Shown piece by piece: positions 1,577 to 6,497 of a stretch of 64,000 bases of DNA. Within the stretch, counting starts at the first letter, position 1. Each line of letters starts with the position of its first letter. The DNA comes from Escherichia phage JLBYU32, in sequence record OK272490.1. One strand, given 5' to 3'. Under the pieces are notes generated by a model that ran no database searches, was not told where the DNA came from, and saw only the letters and a list, made by a program, of their open reading frames with translations. Position numbers and translations under genes: made by a program.

Positions 1577-1653
1577 CTCTGTTTAGCTCAGCTTGGTAGA
1601 GCGTTCCGTTTGGGGCGGTAAGGCCGGAGGTTCAAGTCCTCCAACAGAGACCA
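1577..1653 (+). tRNA. tRNA-Pro (anticodon TGG)
   Basis: 7-bp acceptor stem ctctgtt/aacagag, T-arm ggagg-ttcaagt-cctcc, anticodon loop tttgggg, CCA encoded; one mismatch in anticodon stem. Confidence 0.6.
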
Positions 1654-1660
1654 AATTAAT

Positions 1661-1738
1661 GTTCCAGTAGACAAAACGGTAAAGTCACCACTCTTTCAAA
1701 GTGGATATTTGAGGGCTCAAATCCCTTCTGGAACGCCA
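1661..1738 (+). tRNA. tRNA-Glu (anticodon TTC)
   Basis: Acceptor gttccag/ctggaac, anticodon arm ccact-ctttcaa-agtgg, T-loop ctcaaat, CCA encoded. Confidence 0.65.
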
Positions 1739-1829
1739 GTTTTGACAGAAGACCAATTACAGCAAGTTTAATCTTATTCATCTGACACGAAATCGGACAA
1801 AGAAGAGATTTGGTCTGGTCATTAAGAAT

Positions 1830-1906
1830 TGCGGGTATAGAGAAAGGGCGTCTCACATGTCTCATTAGCATGGTATCGGCAGGTTCGACTCCTGCACCCG
1901 CCTCCA
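1830..1906 (+). tRNA. tRNA with CAT anticodon (Met/Ile2/initiator-like), atypical 1-72 mismatch
   Basis: T-arm gcagg-ttcgact-cctgc, acceptor 3' acccgcc, anticodon loop ctcatta, CCA encoded; 5' boundary uncertain. Confidence 0.45.
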
Positions 1907-1983
1907 ATTTTGCAGAAGACCGTATGCAGCAATAAACTACTTTTTGCGGATAAAAGAAAAAACACGGTCTGGCAATGTATTAA

Positions 1984-2060
1984 GGTTAGGAAGCACATAA
2001 GGTATGTGCGGTCGCCTGTTAAGCGAATGGCACAGGGTTCGAATCCCTGACTAACCGCCA
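1984..2060 (+). tRNA. tRNA-Asn (anticodon GTT)
   Basis: Acceptor ggttagg/actaacc (one mismatch), anticodon loop ctgttaa, T-arm caggg-ttcgaat-ccctg, CCA encoded. Confidence 0.6.
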
Positions 2061-2069
2061 AATTTAAAT

Positions 2070-2157
2070 GTGTCGTTATCCCGTAGATGGTAGCGGTGGG
2101 GACTGTAAATCCCTTGTCATTGAGACTCGGTAGGTTCGACTCCTACACGGCACACCA
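2070..2157 (+). tRNA. tRNA-Tyr (anticodon GTA), long variable arm
   Basis: 88 nt; acceptor gtgtcgt/acggcac with G-U, anticodon loop ctgtaaa, T-arm gtagg-ttcgact-cctac, CCA encoded. Confidence 0.6.
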
Positions 2158-2163
2158 AATAAA

Positions 2164-2241
2164 GGTTATGTAGTTTAATCTGGTTAAAATACTCCCCTGT
2201 CACGGGAGATGATGAGGGTTCAAATCCCTTCGTAACCGCCA
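2164..2241 (+). tRNA. tRNA-Asp (anticodon GTC)
   Basis: Acceptor ggttatg/cgtaacc, anticodon arm ctccc-ctgtcac-gggag, T-loop ttcaaat, CCA encoded. Confidence 0.65.
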
Positions 2242-2392
2242 ATTTTGAGAGGGCTATTTAGCCCCTCCCTTAAAGAGTTCTTACGAGTATTCTTTAAAGG
2301 AGCAGAAGACCAAATACAGCAAATACGTATGATATTTTCAAGCCAATTTAATTTTGAAAAAATTTAAAACTTGGTCTGGCTCAACAATTTTA

Positions 2393-2535
2393 CAGAAGAC
2401 CGTTTACAGCAAAACTTAAACAATCTATTTCTCGGTAAAGAAAAGGAGAAGGTTCGATTCCTTCACTCGACAGATGTCGAGTTGGTGTAATGGTAGCACT
2501 TAAGATGATAAACAACGGTCTGGTAATCATCTTTG
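2393..2535 (+). ncRNA. Permuted tRNA-like structured RNA candidate (Y-RNA/YrlA-like architecture?)
   Basis: T-arm gaagg-ttcgatt-ccttc (2448-2464) then acceptor 3' strand actcgac, 4-nt loop, acceptor 5' strand gtcgagt and D-arm gtgtaatggtagcac; flanked by pairing agaccgtt (2397-2404) / aacggtct (2514-2521). Confidence 0.35.
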
Positions 2536-2674
2536 CAGTAGCTTATGTGGCTAATTATGTCGTCCCATGAGTGCCGATGAATTTCCTTAGCATGATTCTA
2601 GATTAGCTTAATAGGAAATGACTCTACAGACCCTTTAGCAAGGTCTGCGTAGGTTACTGCAAAGATGATTTAAT

Positions 2675-2750
2675 GGAAGTGTAGCAGAATGGTGATGCGG
2701 CAGACTTTTAATCTGACAGGCGATGGGTTCGAATCCCTCCACTTCTACCA
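2675..2750 (+). tRNA. tRNA-Lys (anticodon TTT)
   Basis: Acceptor ggaagtg/cacttct, anticodon loop cttttaa, T-loop ttcgaat, CCA encoded; D-stem imperfect. Confidence 0.55.
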
Positions 2751-2754
2751 AAAT

Positions 2755-2831
2755 GGTTCAGTCGCAGATAAGGTAATGCAGGGGTCTCATAAGCCCTATG
2801 AATGTGGGTTCGATTCCCATCTGAACCTCCA
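2755..2831 (+). tRNA. tRNA with CAT anticodon (Met or Ile2)
   Basis: Acceptor ggttcag/ctgaacc, anticodon arm ggggt-ctcataa-gccct, T-arm gtggg-ttcgatt-cccat, CCA encoded. Confidence 0.6.
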
Positions 2832-5137: not shown

Positions 5138-5145
5138 AGATTTAA

Positions 5146-5221
5146 AGGGGATTAGTTTACAAGGTTAAAACCTCGGTCTTTGAAATCGAAGAAGTTGGTT
5201 CAATTCCAACATCCCCCGCCA
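5146..5221 (+). tRNA. tRNA-Gln (anticodon TTG)
   Basis: Acceptor aggggat/atccccc (1-72 mismatch), anticodon arm tcggt-ctttgaa-atcga, T-arm gttgg-ttcaatt-ccaac, CCA encoded. Confidence 0.55.
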
Positions 5222-5223
5222 AT

Positions 5224-5302
5224 GCTCCATTACTCCAATTGGCAGAGAGGCCAGACTTAAAATCTGTGTTATGTATCGGTTCGAATCCGATATGGAGTAC
5301 CA
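5224..5302 (+). tRNA. tRNA with TAA anticodon (Leu-decoding), short variable arm, Leu-like D-loop
   Basis: Acceptor gctccat/atggagt, D-loop caattggcaga, anticodon arm ccaga-cttaaaa-tctgt, T-arm atcgg-ttcgaat-ccgat, CCA encoded. Confidence 0.5.
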
Positions 5303-5307
5303 AATTT

Positions 5308-5383
5308 AGCGGTATAGCATAACTGGCAATGCAGCAGCCTCTGAAGCTGTCCTATTAAGGTTCAAATCCTTATGCCGCTGCCA
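5308..5383 (+). tRNA. tRNA-Gln (anticodon CTG)
   Basis: Acceptor agcggta/tgccgct, anticodon arm gcagc-ctctgaa-gctgt, T-arm taagg-ttcaaat-cctta, CCA encoded. Confidence 0.55.
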
Positions 5384-5414
5384 CTTCTAAGGATTCTTGC
5401 GAGAGTCCTTAAAT

Positions 5415-5490
5415 GTGGCCTTATCATAAATGGTAATGACCCATGCTGTGAACATGGTCTATACGGGTTCAAATCCCGTAGGTCACCCCA
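5415..5490 (+). tRNA. tRNA-His (anticodon GTG)
   Basis: Acceptor gtggcct/aggtcac, anticodon arm ccatg-ctgtgaa-catgg, T-arm acggg-ttcaaat-cccgt, CCA encoded. Confidence 0.65.
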
Positions 5491-5495
5491 ATTTA

Positions 5496-5572
5496 TAGTC
5501 CAAGTAGCTTATATGGTTAAAGCGCGTGTCTGAAAAACATGAGAAGAGGGTTCGAATCCCACTGGACTACCA
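5496..5572 (+). tRNA. tRNA-Phe (anticodon GAA)
   Basis: Anticodon arm cgtgt-ctgaaaa-acatg, T-loop ttcgaat, acceptor tagtcca/tggacta; 5' and 3' ends uncertain by 1-2 nt. Confidence 0.5.
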
Positions 5573-5588
5573 ATTTCAAAGGTGCTTA

Positions 5589-6323
5589 ATGAAAGAGATG
5601 ACAGAACAAGGTAAGGAGATTTTTAATCTCTTAAAAACCGGTAGAGGGTTTTCTAATCCCCTTATTACTGGTGCAGCAGTTCTCGGTGGAACCGTAGCTG
5701 CCTCTACATCACTTGTAAGTTCTATTAGCTCTGTAACAGACCCTACAATGAAGGAGAAACTTGTTGCTGCTGGACTTACAACAGTCCTTCTAAACAGCTT
5801 TACAACAAGCCTTACAAGCACTACAGCGACTACTAAGACCTTAACAGACTATGGTCAAAAGTCTATTGATGAGTTTTCATCACGTATGCAGGTAGCAAAG
5901 GGGTATTCCAATGTTATGGGTGCAGCAGGGGAACAAGTTGGCTGTACACCGTTTAGTGGTATTATGGGCGTTGCTACAGAATATGGTCAAAAAGCTATTG
6001 ACACAATTAACAGTGCACTAGATGACGTTAATGATGTATTAAGTGACTTACAAGATGCTATTGATAAGGGTCTTGATACTGTTTCTGATTTAGCTAATCA
6101 GGCTGTTAGCAAGATTAATGAAGGTATCTCGAAGATTACAGCTTATGCAGATGAAGTTGTGCAGATGATTGAAGAAGAAGCTGCCCTTATTGCAGAGTAC
6201 CTTAAAACGAATATCAATGGGTTCTTAGCAGGTATCTTACCAGACTGGTTTGATGATGCCTGTAAAACTGGTGTAATTGATACTATTGCAACACCAGAAA
6301 TGAAGAGCGCATTACAGAAGTAA
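5589..6323 (+). CDS. hypothetical membrane-anchored protein (Ser/Thr-rich, coiled-coil C-terminus)
   Basis: Track ORF 5526-6323 trimmed to internal ATG at 5589 because upstream part overlaps tRNA-Phe; SD-like aaaggtg upstream. Confidence 0.5.
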   Translation: MKEMTEQGKEIFNLLKTGRGFSNPLITGAAVLGGTVAASTSLVSSISSVTDPTMKEKLVAAGLTTVLLNSFTTSLTSTTATTKTLTDYGQKSIDEFSSRMQVAKGYSNVMGAAGEQVGCTPFSGIMGVATEYGQKAIDTINSALDDVNDVLSDLQDAIDKGLDTVSDLANQAVSKINEGISKITAYADEVVQMIEEEAALIAEYLKTNINGFLAGILPDWFDDACKTGVIDTIATPEMKSALQK

Positions 6324-6324
6324 T

Positions 6325-6417
6325 GGAAGATTAACCCTAAAAGGTAAGGGAGCAGTTTGCTAAACTGCCAGTAGCTGAGAAATCGGTGTACCAGTTCAAG
6401 TCTGGTATCTTCCTCCA
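6325..6417 (+). tRNA. tRNA-Ser (anticodon GCT), long variable arm
   Basis: 93 nt; acceptor ggaagat/atcttcc, anticodon arm gcagt-ttgctaa-actgc, T-arm accag-ttcaagt-ctggt, CCA encoded. Confidence 0.6.
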
Positions 6418-6421
6418 ATTT

Positions 6422-6497
6422 GAATCCGTGACAGAAATGGCTATGTGCCTGTCTGCAAAACAGGTTTATAAGGGTTCGAGTCCCTTCGGATTCTCCA
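6422..6497 (+). tRNA. tRNA-Cys (anticodon GCA)
   Basis: Acceptor gaatccg/cggattc, anticodon arm cctgt-ctgcaaa-acagg, T-arm aaggg-ttcgagt-ccctt, CCA encoded. Confidence 0.65.

Follow-up and report, generated by a model that had tools for sequence, protein, structure and literature searches.

The stretch of Escherichia phage JLBYU32 DNA analysed here (OK272490.1; 64,000 nucleotides, the whole of which we call the window) carries a large array of transfer RNA (tRNA) genes between positions 1577 and 6497; these genes, and the other parts of the island mapped below, lie on the plus strand. Our analysis indicates that the array is probably part of an island of the Felix O1-like phages that supports translation, in which a decoder set of 27 tRNAs is combined with a ribonucleoprotein that a Ro60-like protein and Y-like RNAs would form, and with a transfer-messenger RNA (tmRNA)-like template. 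About 1.3 kb of the array is not spacer but is made up of the tmRNA-like module and of conserved RNAs, other than tRNAs, that are linked to a Ro60-fold gene of the DUF2828 family just upstream. What appears to be new is the RNA partner class of the phage Ro60-like protein, the tmRNA-like template and two non-canonical tRNAs, and searches of the literature on DUF2828, on ACAGCAA together with Ro60 and on phage tmRNA found no earlier description.

The array is preceded by a gene for a putative RNA-binding protein (1–1411; judging from relatives, the real start is about 5 nt to the left of the window, which holds the open reading frame (ORF) 71–1411). The protein matches DUF7788, a vWA domain, and DUF2828 in Pfam (4.7e-43 and 5.4e-25, respectively), and is assigned to PHROG 850, annotated as ‘RNA-binding protein’. 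An AlphaFold (AF2) model built on 30 homologues reached a predicted local distance difference test score of 87.7, and the top 11 matches of this model in a Foldseek comparison with the PDB were all full-length members of the Ro60 family, namely Xenopus and human Ro60, Deinococcus Rsr and the Ro60 of Thermus phage phiLo (E 5e-8, TM 0.5–0.63, ~520–540 columns). The modelled protein is a ring of HEAT repeats that a MIDAS-bearing vWA domain closes, that is, a Ro60 fold, and the DxSxS signature of the MIDAS (D279, S281 and S283) is invariant in the 30 homologues. DUF2828 homologues were found in 709 phage records, including mycobacteriophages in which they are annotated as ‘Ro-like RNA binding protein’. 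The orthologue in Bas63, gp130, has been described as structurally Ro60-like and counters the ppl defence (PhageMaP, 2024 preprint, PMC11482910), and the same study speculated that some of the Bas63 tRNA genes downstream of gp130 are possibly Y RNAs.

Embedded in the array are four elements, y1 (1743–1821), y2 (1910–1975), y3 (2300–2382) and y4 (2390–2526), that share one fold: an outer stem of 4 bp, then an internal loop (AGA/G), then a helix of 7–8 bp. Their motif, CAGAAGACC(R)NNN(R)CAGCAA followed 30–110 nt on by GGUCUGG, has four exact copies in the window, all of them in the array. In y1 the outer stem is UGAC/GUCA, the helix is AGACCAA/UUGGUCU and the ACAGCAA box lies at 1759–1765, while y2 carries the box variant GCAGCAA. 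When both strands of the whole window were searched unfiltered with a covariance model, R1, the matches were exactly these four elements (y1, 1750–1817, 35.1 bits; y2, 1917–1971, 27.4 bits, E 4e-4; y3, 2307–2378, 41 bits; y4, 2397–2522, 29.5 bits), two of which, y2 and y4, had not been used to build it. The z-scores of the folds are modest for y1–y3 (-1.3 to -2.1) and reach -2.7 for y4. All four copies are kept in 29/29 related loci; their interiors have been replaced wholesale and their stems held, partly via compensatory changes such as UUGC/GCAA to UUAC/GUAA in the outer stem of y2. The core of y4 is additionally a tRNA mimic, with a T arm (GAAGG-UUCGAUU-CCUUC), an acceptor-like hairpin (CUCGAC-AGAU-GUCGAG) and a D arm placed in this order within the terminal helix, and the acceptor-like hairpin covaries among relatives (CUCGAC/GUCGAG, CACG/CGUG and CCCUUC/GAAGGG). 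This is the architecture of YrlA, whose tRNA-like layout and GNCGAAN0-1G sequence near the 5’ end have been described (Chen 2014, PMC4201824), and the Ro60-fold gene lies on the same strand as y4 and ends at 1411.

Helix-ACAGCAA elements, two to three each, also adjoin the DUF2828 genes of Mycobacterium, Campylobacter, Listeria and uncultured phages. The stem sequences of the elements in these unrelated phages differ, and the design is equal: a helix, ACAGCAA, and a distal complementary strand followed by G. In 75 diverse DUF2828 loci taken from IMG/VR, the gene strand holds 106 copies of ACAGCAA and the opposite strand 29, the latter being the chance level. Since about 40% of shuffled ACAGCAA cores passed a helix criterion of at least 6 bp, which was thus too loose, we used a fixed-geometry test instead: 42 of the 106 gene-strand copies have a 7-bp helix that starts exactly 9 nt upstream, and none of the loci has such a helix at offsets of 8, 11, 12 or 14 nt or on the opposite strand. 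With the first descriptor, shuffled loci gave 0–3 motif matches in total versus 37 in the real ones. In DUF2828 loci totalling 509 kb, R1 found 57 matches, every one on the gene strand, and in 770 kb of control phage DNA it found three, each beside a DUF2828 gene that was revealed afterwards by tblastn; the motif is absent from the ~740 kb of phage DNA that has no DUF2828 gene. tRNA genes lie within 2.5 kb of the DUF2828 gene in 21 of the 75 loci, and all 86 of these tRNAs are co-directional with it. Because the motif is exclusive to DUF2828 neighbourhoods, lies on the gene strand and has a conserved geometry, we infer from this genomic co-occurrence that y1–y4 are the cognate RNAs of the DUF2828 branch of Ro60.

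Several further observations concern the motif in other settings. In Vibrio phage ValKK3 (L040, 3823–3865), the phage’s own DUF2828 gene is overlapped, at its ribosome-binding site and start codon, by the motif-like AGACAUUUUACAGCAA, for which there is a 6-bp partner. This hints at autoregulation; R1 did not score this sequence at E<=0.01. In Listeria phage LMLPA3 (L042, 1377–1928), a ROOL-like RNA (89 bits against a gathering score of 99.1) lies on the upstream side of the DUF2828 gene and has tRNA genes on one side and three helix-ACAGCAA elements on the other; a gene for an RtcB-type RNA ligase is found ~1.3 kb downstream. The Rfam YrlA model (RF02553) gives 21.4 bits on a mycobacteriophage copy versus a cutoff of 69, matching the tRNA-like core alone. 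The bare heptamer ACAGCAA occurs 26 times in the window versus 3–13 times in mononucleotide shuffles; the copies outside the array (19965, 24990–28583 and 45037) have weak nearby complements and no R1 match, and may reflect coding composition.

The array also holds a tmRNA-like coding module (2959–3151), recognised from a partial Rfam alignment, the conservation of its tag and covariation. It has a 5’ GUUUUCG segment and the resume context AAAAUAAAU, and a tag frame running from GCA to GCU (3002–3031) encodes ANDNVFLAVA. The two stop codons that end the tag (3032–3037) lie in the loop of helix 5 (3020–3049), which is followed by an H-type pseudoknot (3050–3082) and by hairpins at 3090–3116 and 3117–3151. 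The Rfam tmRNA model aligns AAAAUAAAUGCAAACGACAA at high posterior probability, the total score for RF00023 being 16.3 bits versus a cutoff of 47. The module is present in 30/30 Felixounavirus loci and in 105 viral contigs overall, which comprise Felixounavirus, Ackermannviridae, ~46-kb phages like Klebsiella phage KP591P1 and some contigs of 80–110 kb. The tag was found in nine variants, all fitting AN[DE]xx[YF]LAVA, a form that was partly set by the search pattern; between phage families, the tag frame changes synonymously or conservatively and the overlapping frame non-synonymously. In 23 sequences, helix 5 and the pseudoknot are 94% paired, with six compensatory pairs, a score that 0/500 shuffles reach, while slid controls stay at or below 50%. 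ARAGORN called no tmRNA, and no acceptor stem, T arm or CCA end of the RNA was found in either the standard or a permuted order. What we have is best described as a tmRNA-like template without a recognisable tRNA-like domain, which may need a partner RNA, may act as a decoy or may be a conserved relic with another role.

Other assignments of this region were considered and rejected. A permuted tmRNA with the neighbouring tRNA-Ile as its acceptor piece (RF04321, 32.5 bits versus 47) was discarded because that tRNA-Ile is a complete 63-bit tRNA, a promoter-like site lies between the pieces and the score falls to 15 bits without the tRNA. The tag region is not a conventional small ORF either: it has no in-frame start codon before the tag, and the overlapping ATG frame MQTTMFFWQ is altered at every variable site between phages, as opposed to the synonymous changes of the tag frame. 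A long 3’ domain found in the ~46-kb phages was dismissed as a tRNA-like domain, for it has no G3:U70 pair and no conserved CCA and is absent from the window. In these KP591P1-like contigs (L004, L123, L126, L128 and L141) the tag module is flanked by repeated cassettes in which GGUAAGRGCAUUG and CAGUGCUCUUUCC enclose 50–70 hypervariable nucleotides, some of the inserts holding T-arm-like hairpins; a conserved 3’ domain follows, GUUGUGGUG ... GCCGGAGUUCAGCACCGGC-CACCACAAC.

Two tRNAs of the array depart from the canonical structure. The element at 3157–3238 is, by its sequence and comparative evidence, probably an unusual tRNA-Arg(UCU) that would read AGA, with putative aminoacylation; it keeps an acceptor stem, an anticodon arm (loop CUUCUAA, anticodon UCU), a T arm and ACCA, and its D arm is replaced by a UAUCUCA linker alone. 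This linker is invariant although it lay outside the search pattern, as is a 23-nt insert in the variable region (CGUUAAYCGAGUAANUGGAGUAU), possibly a GUAA-capped hairpin. ARAGORN did not call the element, Rfam scored it at 31.2 bits versus a cutoff of 29 in a narrow search only, and its single-sequence fold is about as stable as that of its shuffles (z -0.14). In 24 distinct homologous variants, pairing is at 97% over the stems of the acceptor, the anticodon arm and the T arm, and 13 pairs are compensatory (0/500 shuffles reach this score, and pairing in slid controls does not exceed 48%); the UCU loop is invariant. In the 30 Felixounavirus loci the slot is occupied by the D-arm-less form in 15 and by a canonical tRNA-Arg(TCT) in the other 15, never by both and never by neither. 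The D-arm-less type is present in 38 viral contigs of 14–360 kb. The Felix O1 paper remarked on the lack of an AGA-reading tRNA that one would have expected there (Whichard 2010, PMC3185647); Felix O1 does carry the D-arm-less tRNA-Arg(UCU), unannotated. The element has a G3·U70 pair and A73, and was also tried as the tRNA-like domain of the tmRNA-like RNA; this was rejected, as the G·U pair is not conserved in the 24 homologues, the element occurs in other phages without the tag module and a normal tRNA-Arg(TCT) stands in its place in sister genomes.

The element at 3382–3464 is detected neither by ARAGORN nor by the Rfam tRNA model, and the covariation of its relatives and the exclusivity of its slot mark it as a probable atypical tRNA-Trp(CCA) with putative charging, which would complete the set of 20 amino acids. 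In E. coli, the identity set for tryptophan comprises the CCA anticodon, G73 and A1-U72. All three are present at 3382–3464, where about 10 nt lead from the acceptor stem to a D stem of 3 bp. The element is kept in 27/30 related loci, and two loci with a canonical tRNA-Trp in this place do not have it. Compensatory changes turn AACGG/CCGUU into GUAAG/CUUAC in the anticodon stem and CUC/GAG into CAC/GUG in the D stem, and are also present in the T stem. This type was seen only in contigs of Felixounavirus size. The stretch between the two atypical tRNAs (3239–3381) holds a hairpin, AGACGACC...GGUGGUCUG, that loosely resembles a Y stem and has no ACAGCAA box, as well as a weak promoter-like site at 3350–3378; in relatives an HNH gene stands at this position.

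These data were weighed against other explanations of the same DNA. That the island is a plain tRNA array, with gaps that are spacers, processing signals, terminators and decayed pseudogenes, would agree with existing annotations, which show nothing or small hypothetical ORFs in the gaps, with the modest fold scores of y1–y3 and with the frequency of pseudo-tRNAs in phage tRNA clusters (Whichard 2010, PMC3185647). We consider it very improbable, given that the motif is found exactly four times here and nowhere else in the 64 kb, recurs beside the same protein family with differing stems and is not found where a DUF2828 gene is absent, and that the tmRNA-like module maintains its reading frame through synonymous changes, together with a covarying pseudoknot, across phage families. 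Quite unlikely, in our estimate, is that the helix-ACAGCAA elements are cis landing pads on the pre-tRNA transcript, at which the Ro60-like protein would chaperone or protect the neighbouring tRNAs, control their processing or regulate its own mRNA. The elements do lie 4–9 nt from the flanking tRNAs, many other phages have a single copy that immediately follows the stop codon of the DUF2828 gene or immediately precedes its start, and the ValKK3 sequence overlaps a start codon; set against this, processing of the flanking tRNAs by RNase P and by 3’ trimming would free the elements anyway, the elaborate tRNA-mimic domain of y4 is typical of free YrlA RNAs, and several phages have two to four tandem copies. 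A captured host ssrA fragment of which the tmRNA-like segment is a non-functional relic, with the two deviant tRNAs as pseudogenes or decoys, also appears unlikely to us. The missing acceptor stem, T arm and CCA end, the lack of an ARAGORN tmRNA call, the low Rfam score (16 versus 47 bits), the failure of ARAGORN to call both deviant tRNAs and the near-zero fold score of 3157–3238 all speak for this reading, but the tag frame varies mostly synonymously or conservatively while the overlapping frame varies throughout, helix 5 and the pseudoknot covary, and the module is found in every Felixounavirus locus and in three other phage groups. Moreover, the deviant tRNAs hold the slot of a canonical tRNA in sister genomes, never alongside it, and the D-arm-less type keeps its three stems by compensatory change and its UCU loop unchanged.

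Several points weigh against our own reading of the island as a decoder set combined with a Ro60/Y-RNA-type particle and a tmRNA-like template. The DUF2828 protein has no match to Pfam TROVE, and phmmer and hmmsearch against the PDB sequences found no relevant relative, so that the link to Ro60 comes from the comparison of folds. The strict motif is found in only about half of the DUF2828 loci, and the helix covariation in the alignment used (A3) is partly circular, since the helix was itself a search criterion. A search of the window at E<=10 gave no match to Rfam YrlA (RF02553), and the Y elements of the window lack GNCGAA, the published motif for Rsr binding, and have AGAAGACC..ACAGCAA instead. 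The Y-like elements, putative partner RNAs, could act in cis on the precursor transcript instead of as free small RNAs. Finally, the tRNAs of Bas63 are mostly non-essential in laboratory strains according to PhageMaP (PMC11482910).

On the genes, motifs, covariation, protein fold and motif–protein linkage described above, we infer the following scheme of processing, protein–RNA binding and physiological roles. The island would be transcribed as one co-directional block from three sigma-70-type promoter-like sites, and the tRNA-processing enzymes of the host (RNase P and those of 3’ trimming) would release the tRNAs and the intervening RNAs. The tRNAs would supply decoders for A/U-ending codons, AAG and AGA. 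The helix, the ACAGCAA box 9 nt from the helix base and the trailing G would form a docking site for the upstream Ro60-fold protein, which together with the Y-like RNAs would make a phage particle of the Ro60/Y-RNA type. By analogy with Rsr, Y RNA and polynucleotide phosphorylase, such a particle could bind or route structured or damaged RNA, most plausibly tRNA-related, and it may contribute to counter-defence in the way that the Bas63 protein acts versus ppl.

A more far-reaching version, which we offer as a possible though doubtful combination, would see the island as a translation-protecting kit. DUF2828 would then be a widespread phage branch of Ro60 with its own undescribed class of RNA; the tmRNA-like RNA would be a working tagging template that lacks a tRNA-like domain of its own, perhaps acting with another RNA or with host trans-translation, and the phage would thereby have a degradation tag of its own that ends in LAVA; and the D-arm-less tRNA-Arg(UCU) would be a re-engineered decoder that spread by escaping something that acts on the normal tRNA-Arg.

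The motif provides exact and testable Y-RNA candidates for a Ro60-like protein that in Bas63 counters ppl, and R1 picks out the same class of RNA beside DUF2828 in phages that infect Mycobacterium, Listeria, Campylobacter or many uncultured hosts. The two putative tRNAs missed by standard software complete the 20 amino acids and answer the old remark on AGA in Felix O1; as the D-arm-less design is common to many phage lineages, phage tRNA counts are probably underestimates. The tmRNA-like template without a tRNA-like domain, in turn, is an unexplained object in common enterobacterial phages, among them groups used in phage therapy and biocontrol.

ARAGORN predicts 25 tRNA genes of 19 isotypes (tryptophan being absent) in the array, and none in the remaining 57 kb of the window; 23 of the 25 reach the gathering score of Rfam RF00005. 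Together with the putative D-arm-less tRNA-Arg(UCU) and atypical tRNA-Trp(CCA), this gives 27 tRNA genes for all 20 amino acids, with duplicates for Lys, Gln, Ser and the CAT anticodon and three genes for Leu. An earlier note on this DNA, which had put the array at about 27 genes with at least 18 isotypes covering most amino acids and had listed the same duplicated tRNAs, is thus borne out, and automated prediction did not return far fewer genes than it had counted (ARAGORN 25, Rfam 23). The three members that it had singled out as atypical are likewise all real: 1830–1906 is called by ARAGORN, 3157–3238 is supported by Rfam and covariation, and 3382–3464 by compensatory changes.

The array begins with tRNA-Pro(UGG) (1577–1653) and tRNA-Glu(UUC) (1661–1738), followed by a tRNA-Met(CAU) (1830–1906) that is atypical in its U1·C72 mismatch and U37 (15.9 bits in Rfam) and is annotated as tRNA-Met in relatives. 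Next are tRNA-Asn(GUU) (1984–2060), tRNA-Tyr(GUA) (2070–2157) and tRNA-Asp(GUC) (2164–2241). The tRNA-Tyr gene, which has a long variable arm, falls under the Rfam gathering score and is marked as pseudo in the annotation of some relatives; T4-like phages and other large coliphages have tRNA-Tyr genes that are 82–87% identical to it, which suggests that single tRNA genes are exchanged between phage families. Further on are tRNA-Lys(UUU) (2675–2750), a tRNA with a CAU anticodon that is either elongator Met or Ile2 (2755–2831) and tRNA-Ile(GAU) (2834–2908), and, after the atypical tRNA-Arg and tRNA-Trp, tRNA-Ser(UGA) (3478–3567), tRNA-Leu(UAG) (3824–3900), tRNA-Lys(CUU) (3908–3983), tRNA-Ala(UGC) (3990–4065), tRNA-Gly(UCC) (4072–4146), tRNA-Thr(UGU) (4154–4229), tRNA-Val(UAC) (4326–4400), tRNA-Leu(CAA) (4402–4479) and tRNA-Arg(ACG) (4485–4560). 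The last genes are tRNA-Gln(UUG) (5146–5221), tRNA-Leu(UAA) (5224–5302), tRNA-Gln(CUG) (5308–5383), tRNA-His(GUG) (5415–5490), tRNA-Phe(GAA) (5497–5572), tRNA-Ser(GCU) (6325–6417) and tRNA-Cys(GCA) (6422–6497). All of these were called by ARAGORN, and all except tRNA-Met(CAU) at 1830–1906 and tRNA-Tyr(GUA) also reach the Rfam gathering score.

In E. coli, AGA accounts for about 2 of every 1000 codons. It reaches 17 per 1000 in 41 ORFs of the window, about 8-fold more by this value, and other A/U-ending codons and AAG are 2–3.4-fold enriched in the same ORFs. Most four-codon boxes are served by U34 anticodons, and it is the U34 tRNAs and tRNA-Lys(CUU) of the array that match the enriched codons, which supports the compensation of codon usage proposed in the earlier note. 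The anticodon loop of tRNA-Lys(UUU), CUUUUAA, is presumably identical to that of the host. As to the other role named in the earlier note, a putative counter to tRNA-depleting or anticodon-nuclease defences, escape from nucleases has been argued against by a computational study of a related phage (PMC12482277).

Three other RNA segments of the array are conserved, and R1 matches none of them. The one at 2530–2665 is a structured RNA with an 18-bp closing stem and an inner hairpin, CAGACC-CUUUAGCAA-GGUCUG, that resembles a miniature Y motif (z -5.5, 0/200 shuffles as stable); among relatives, compensatory changes preserve the closing stem and the interior is exchanged. A conserved non-coding stretch at 3568–3823, examined by alifold on 27 variants, forms several hairpins, including AAGACC-UUUUUA-GGUCUU followed by U’s and a long hairpin at its end. 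The third, at 4234–4320, is a structured RNA with GAAGACCGUAACAA (z -3.8, 0/200 shuffles as stable) in which 80% of the columns are invariant among relatives.

Two ORFs, both described as membrane-protein genes in the earlier note, are embedded in the array and match families in Pfam and PHROG. The first (4580–5137, 185 aa, DUF7338/phrog_2143) indeed encodes a strongly hydrophobic N-terminal membrane anchor (Kyte–Doolittle values up to 2.38 over residues 6–36). The product of the second (5589–6323, 244 aa, DUF7217/phrog_2114) has a single marginal hydrophobic window and otherwise mostly amphipathic helices, so that its association with the membrane is weakly indicated. Promoter-like sites occur upstream of the array at 1430–1458 (TTGACA-17-TAATAT) and, 27 nt before the first tRNA, at 1521–1550 (TTGACA-18-TAAAGT with TG), each a 10/12 match to the consensus only, and within it at 2924–2952 (TTGACA-17-TATAGT, 11/12), ~7 nt before the tmRNA-like RNA. 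The latter, which had been proposed as a strong internal promoter, is the best such site in bases 1–7000 and is present in most of the 30 related loci; the overall number of sites in this interval, on the other hand, is at chance level (14 found versus 14.9 expected in shuffled sequence). Position and conservation are what counts in favour of the three sites, which are suggestive of promoters. A sequence scan further found a hairpin followed by a T run, resembling an intrinsic terminator, after the array (6662–6685).

Bases 1–7000 match 405 phage records, 239 of which span most of this interval, and the best matches are 95–96% identical and all belong to Felixounavirus (Felix O1-like) phages of Escherichia and Salmonella, whose annotations show an identical order of tRNAs and then the large terminase gene. 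As relatives at this level of identity carry the same tRNAs in the same order, the array per se is, on sequence grounds, already known and annotated for Felix O1-like phages, and ordinary if taken alone: Felix O1 was published with 22 tRNAs (Whichard 2010, PMC3185647), and the related phage Sf14 with 26 tRNAs for 19 amino acids (PMC12482277). The earlier note, right about the array, its count and its atypical members, had overlooked both this prior knowledge and the ~1.3 kb of non-tRNA RNAs. Felix O1 itself (NC_005282) has the D-arm-less tRNA-Arg (3452–3533), the atypical tRNA-Trp (4034–4116), the tmRNA-like tag (3260–3296) and four Y motifs (1369–2096), none of which is listed in its RefSeq annotation. 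HNH homing-endonuclease ORFs sit at several different points between the tRNAs of relatives (3397–3795 in locus L001; 2531–3016, 3504–3896 and 4814–5227 in Felix O1), and none is present between the tRNAs of this window. The array thus appears to be a hotspot for HNH insertion and for the swapping of cassettes, namely the alleles for Arg and Trp and the inner parts of y1, of y2 and of the RNA at 2530–2665.

Compared with known systems, the island is closest in its DNA to the cluster of Felix O1, Felixounavirus and Ounavirinae, with which it shares gene content and order, both embedded ORFs, the ‘RNA-binding/vWFA’ gene that precedes the array and the terminase that follows it; the difference lies only in the reading, in which two non-canonical tRNAs and the RNAs between tRNAs are now recognised. 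The D-arm-less tRNA-Arg has a counterpart in mitochondria, where such tRNAs are known, for example metazoan mitochondrial tRNA-Ser(AGY). Both lack the D arm and keep the acceptor, anticodon and T arms, but in the phage RNA the T arm is canonical, a linker of 7 nt and an insert of 23 nt in the variable region are invariant, and the setting is that of a bacterial virus. Small stable non-tRNA RNAs amid phage tRNAs are also familiar from T4, the tRNA cluster of which encodes the stable RNAs C and D, released by tRNA processing; to our knowledge, no partner protein has been assigned to them.

The tmRNA-like module resembles tmRNA (ssrA) in its AAAAUAAAU-GCA resume context, in a 10-codon tag that runs from AND to hydrophobic residues and alanine, in the stop codons within the loop of helix 5 and in the H-type pseudoknot downstream; it differs in that no alanine-accepting tRNA-like domain was found and in that the tag ends in LAVA, not LAA. 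In a survey of ssrA (Hudson 2014, PMC4131195), phage copies were reported only for Bxz1-type mycobacteriophages, Bacillus phage G and DS6A, the last with the tRNA-like domain only. Mycobacteriophage DS6A is thus the converse of the module described here, which occurs in enterobacterial phages outside the phage list of that survey. The Ro60-fold protein and its neighbouring elements, in turn, recall bacterial Rsr with YrlA and YrlB and the Ro60 of phiLo with Yrl1/2 (PMC12135203), in which a ring-plus-vWA protein likewise adjoins same-strand small RNAs with a terminal helix, and one of the RNAs, y4, has the tRNA mimic of YrlA, with its T arm first, its acceptor-like hairpin next and its D arm last. 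In contrast to these systems, the protein is DUF2828/DUF7788 rather than TROVE, the RNAs carry a helix, ACAGCAA and G rather than GNCGAA or CGAA, and they are embedded within a tRNA array. The closest overall parallel is the ET08/Bxz1 group of mycobacteriophages, which combine many tRNAs and a tmRNA with a canonical Ro60 and YrlA (Chen 2014, PMC4201824).

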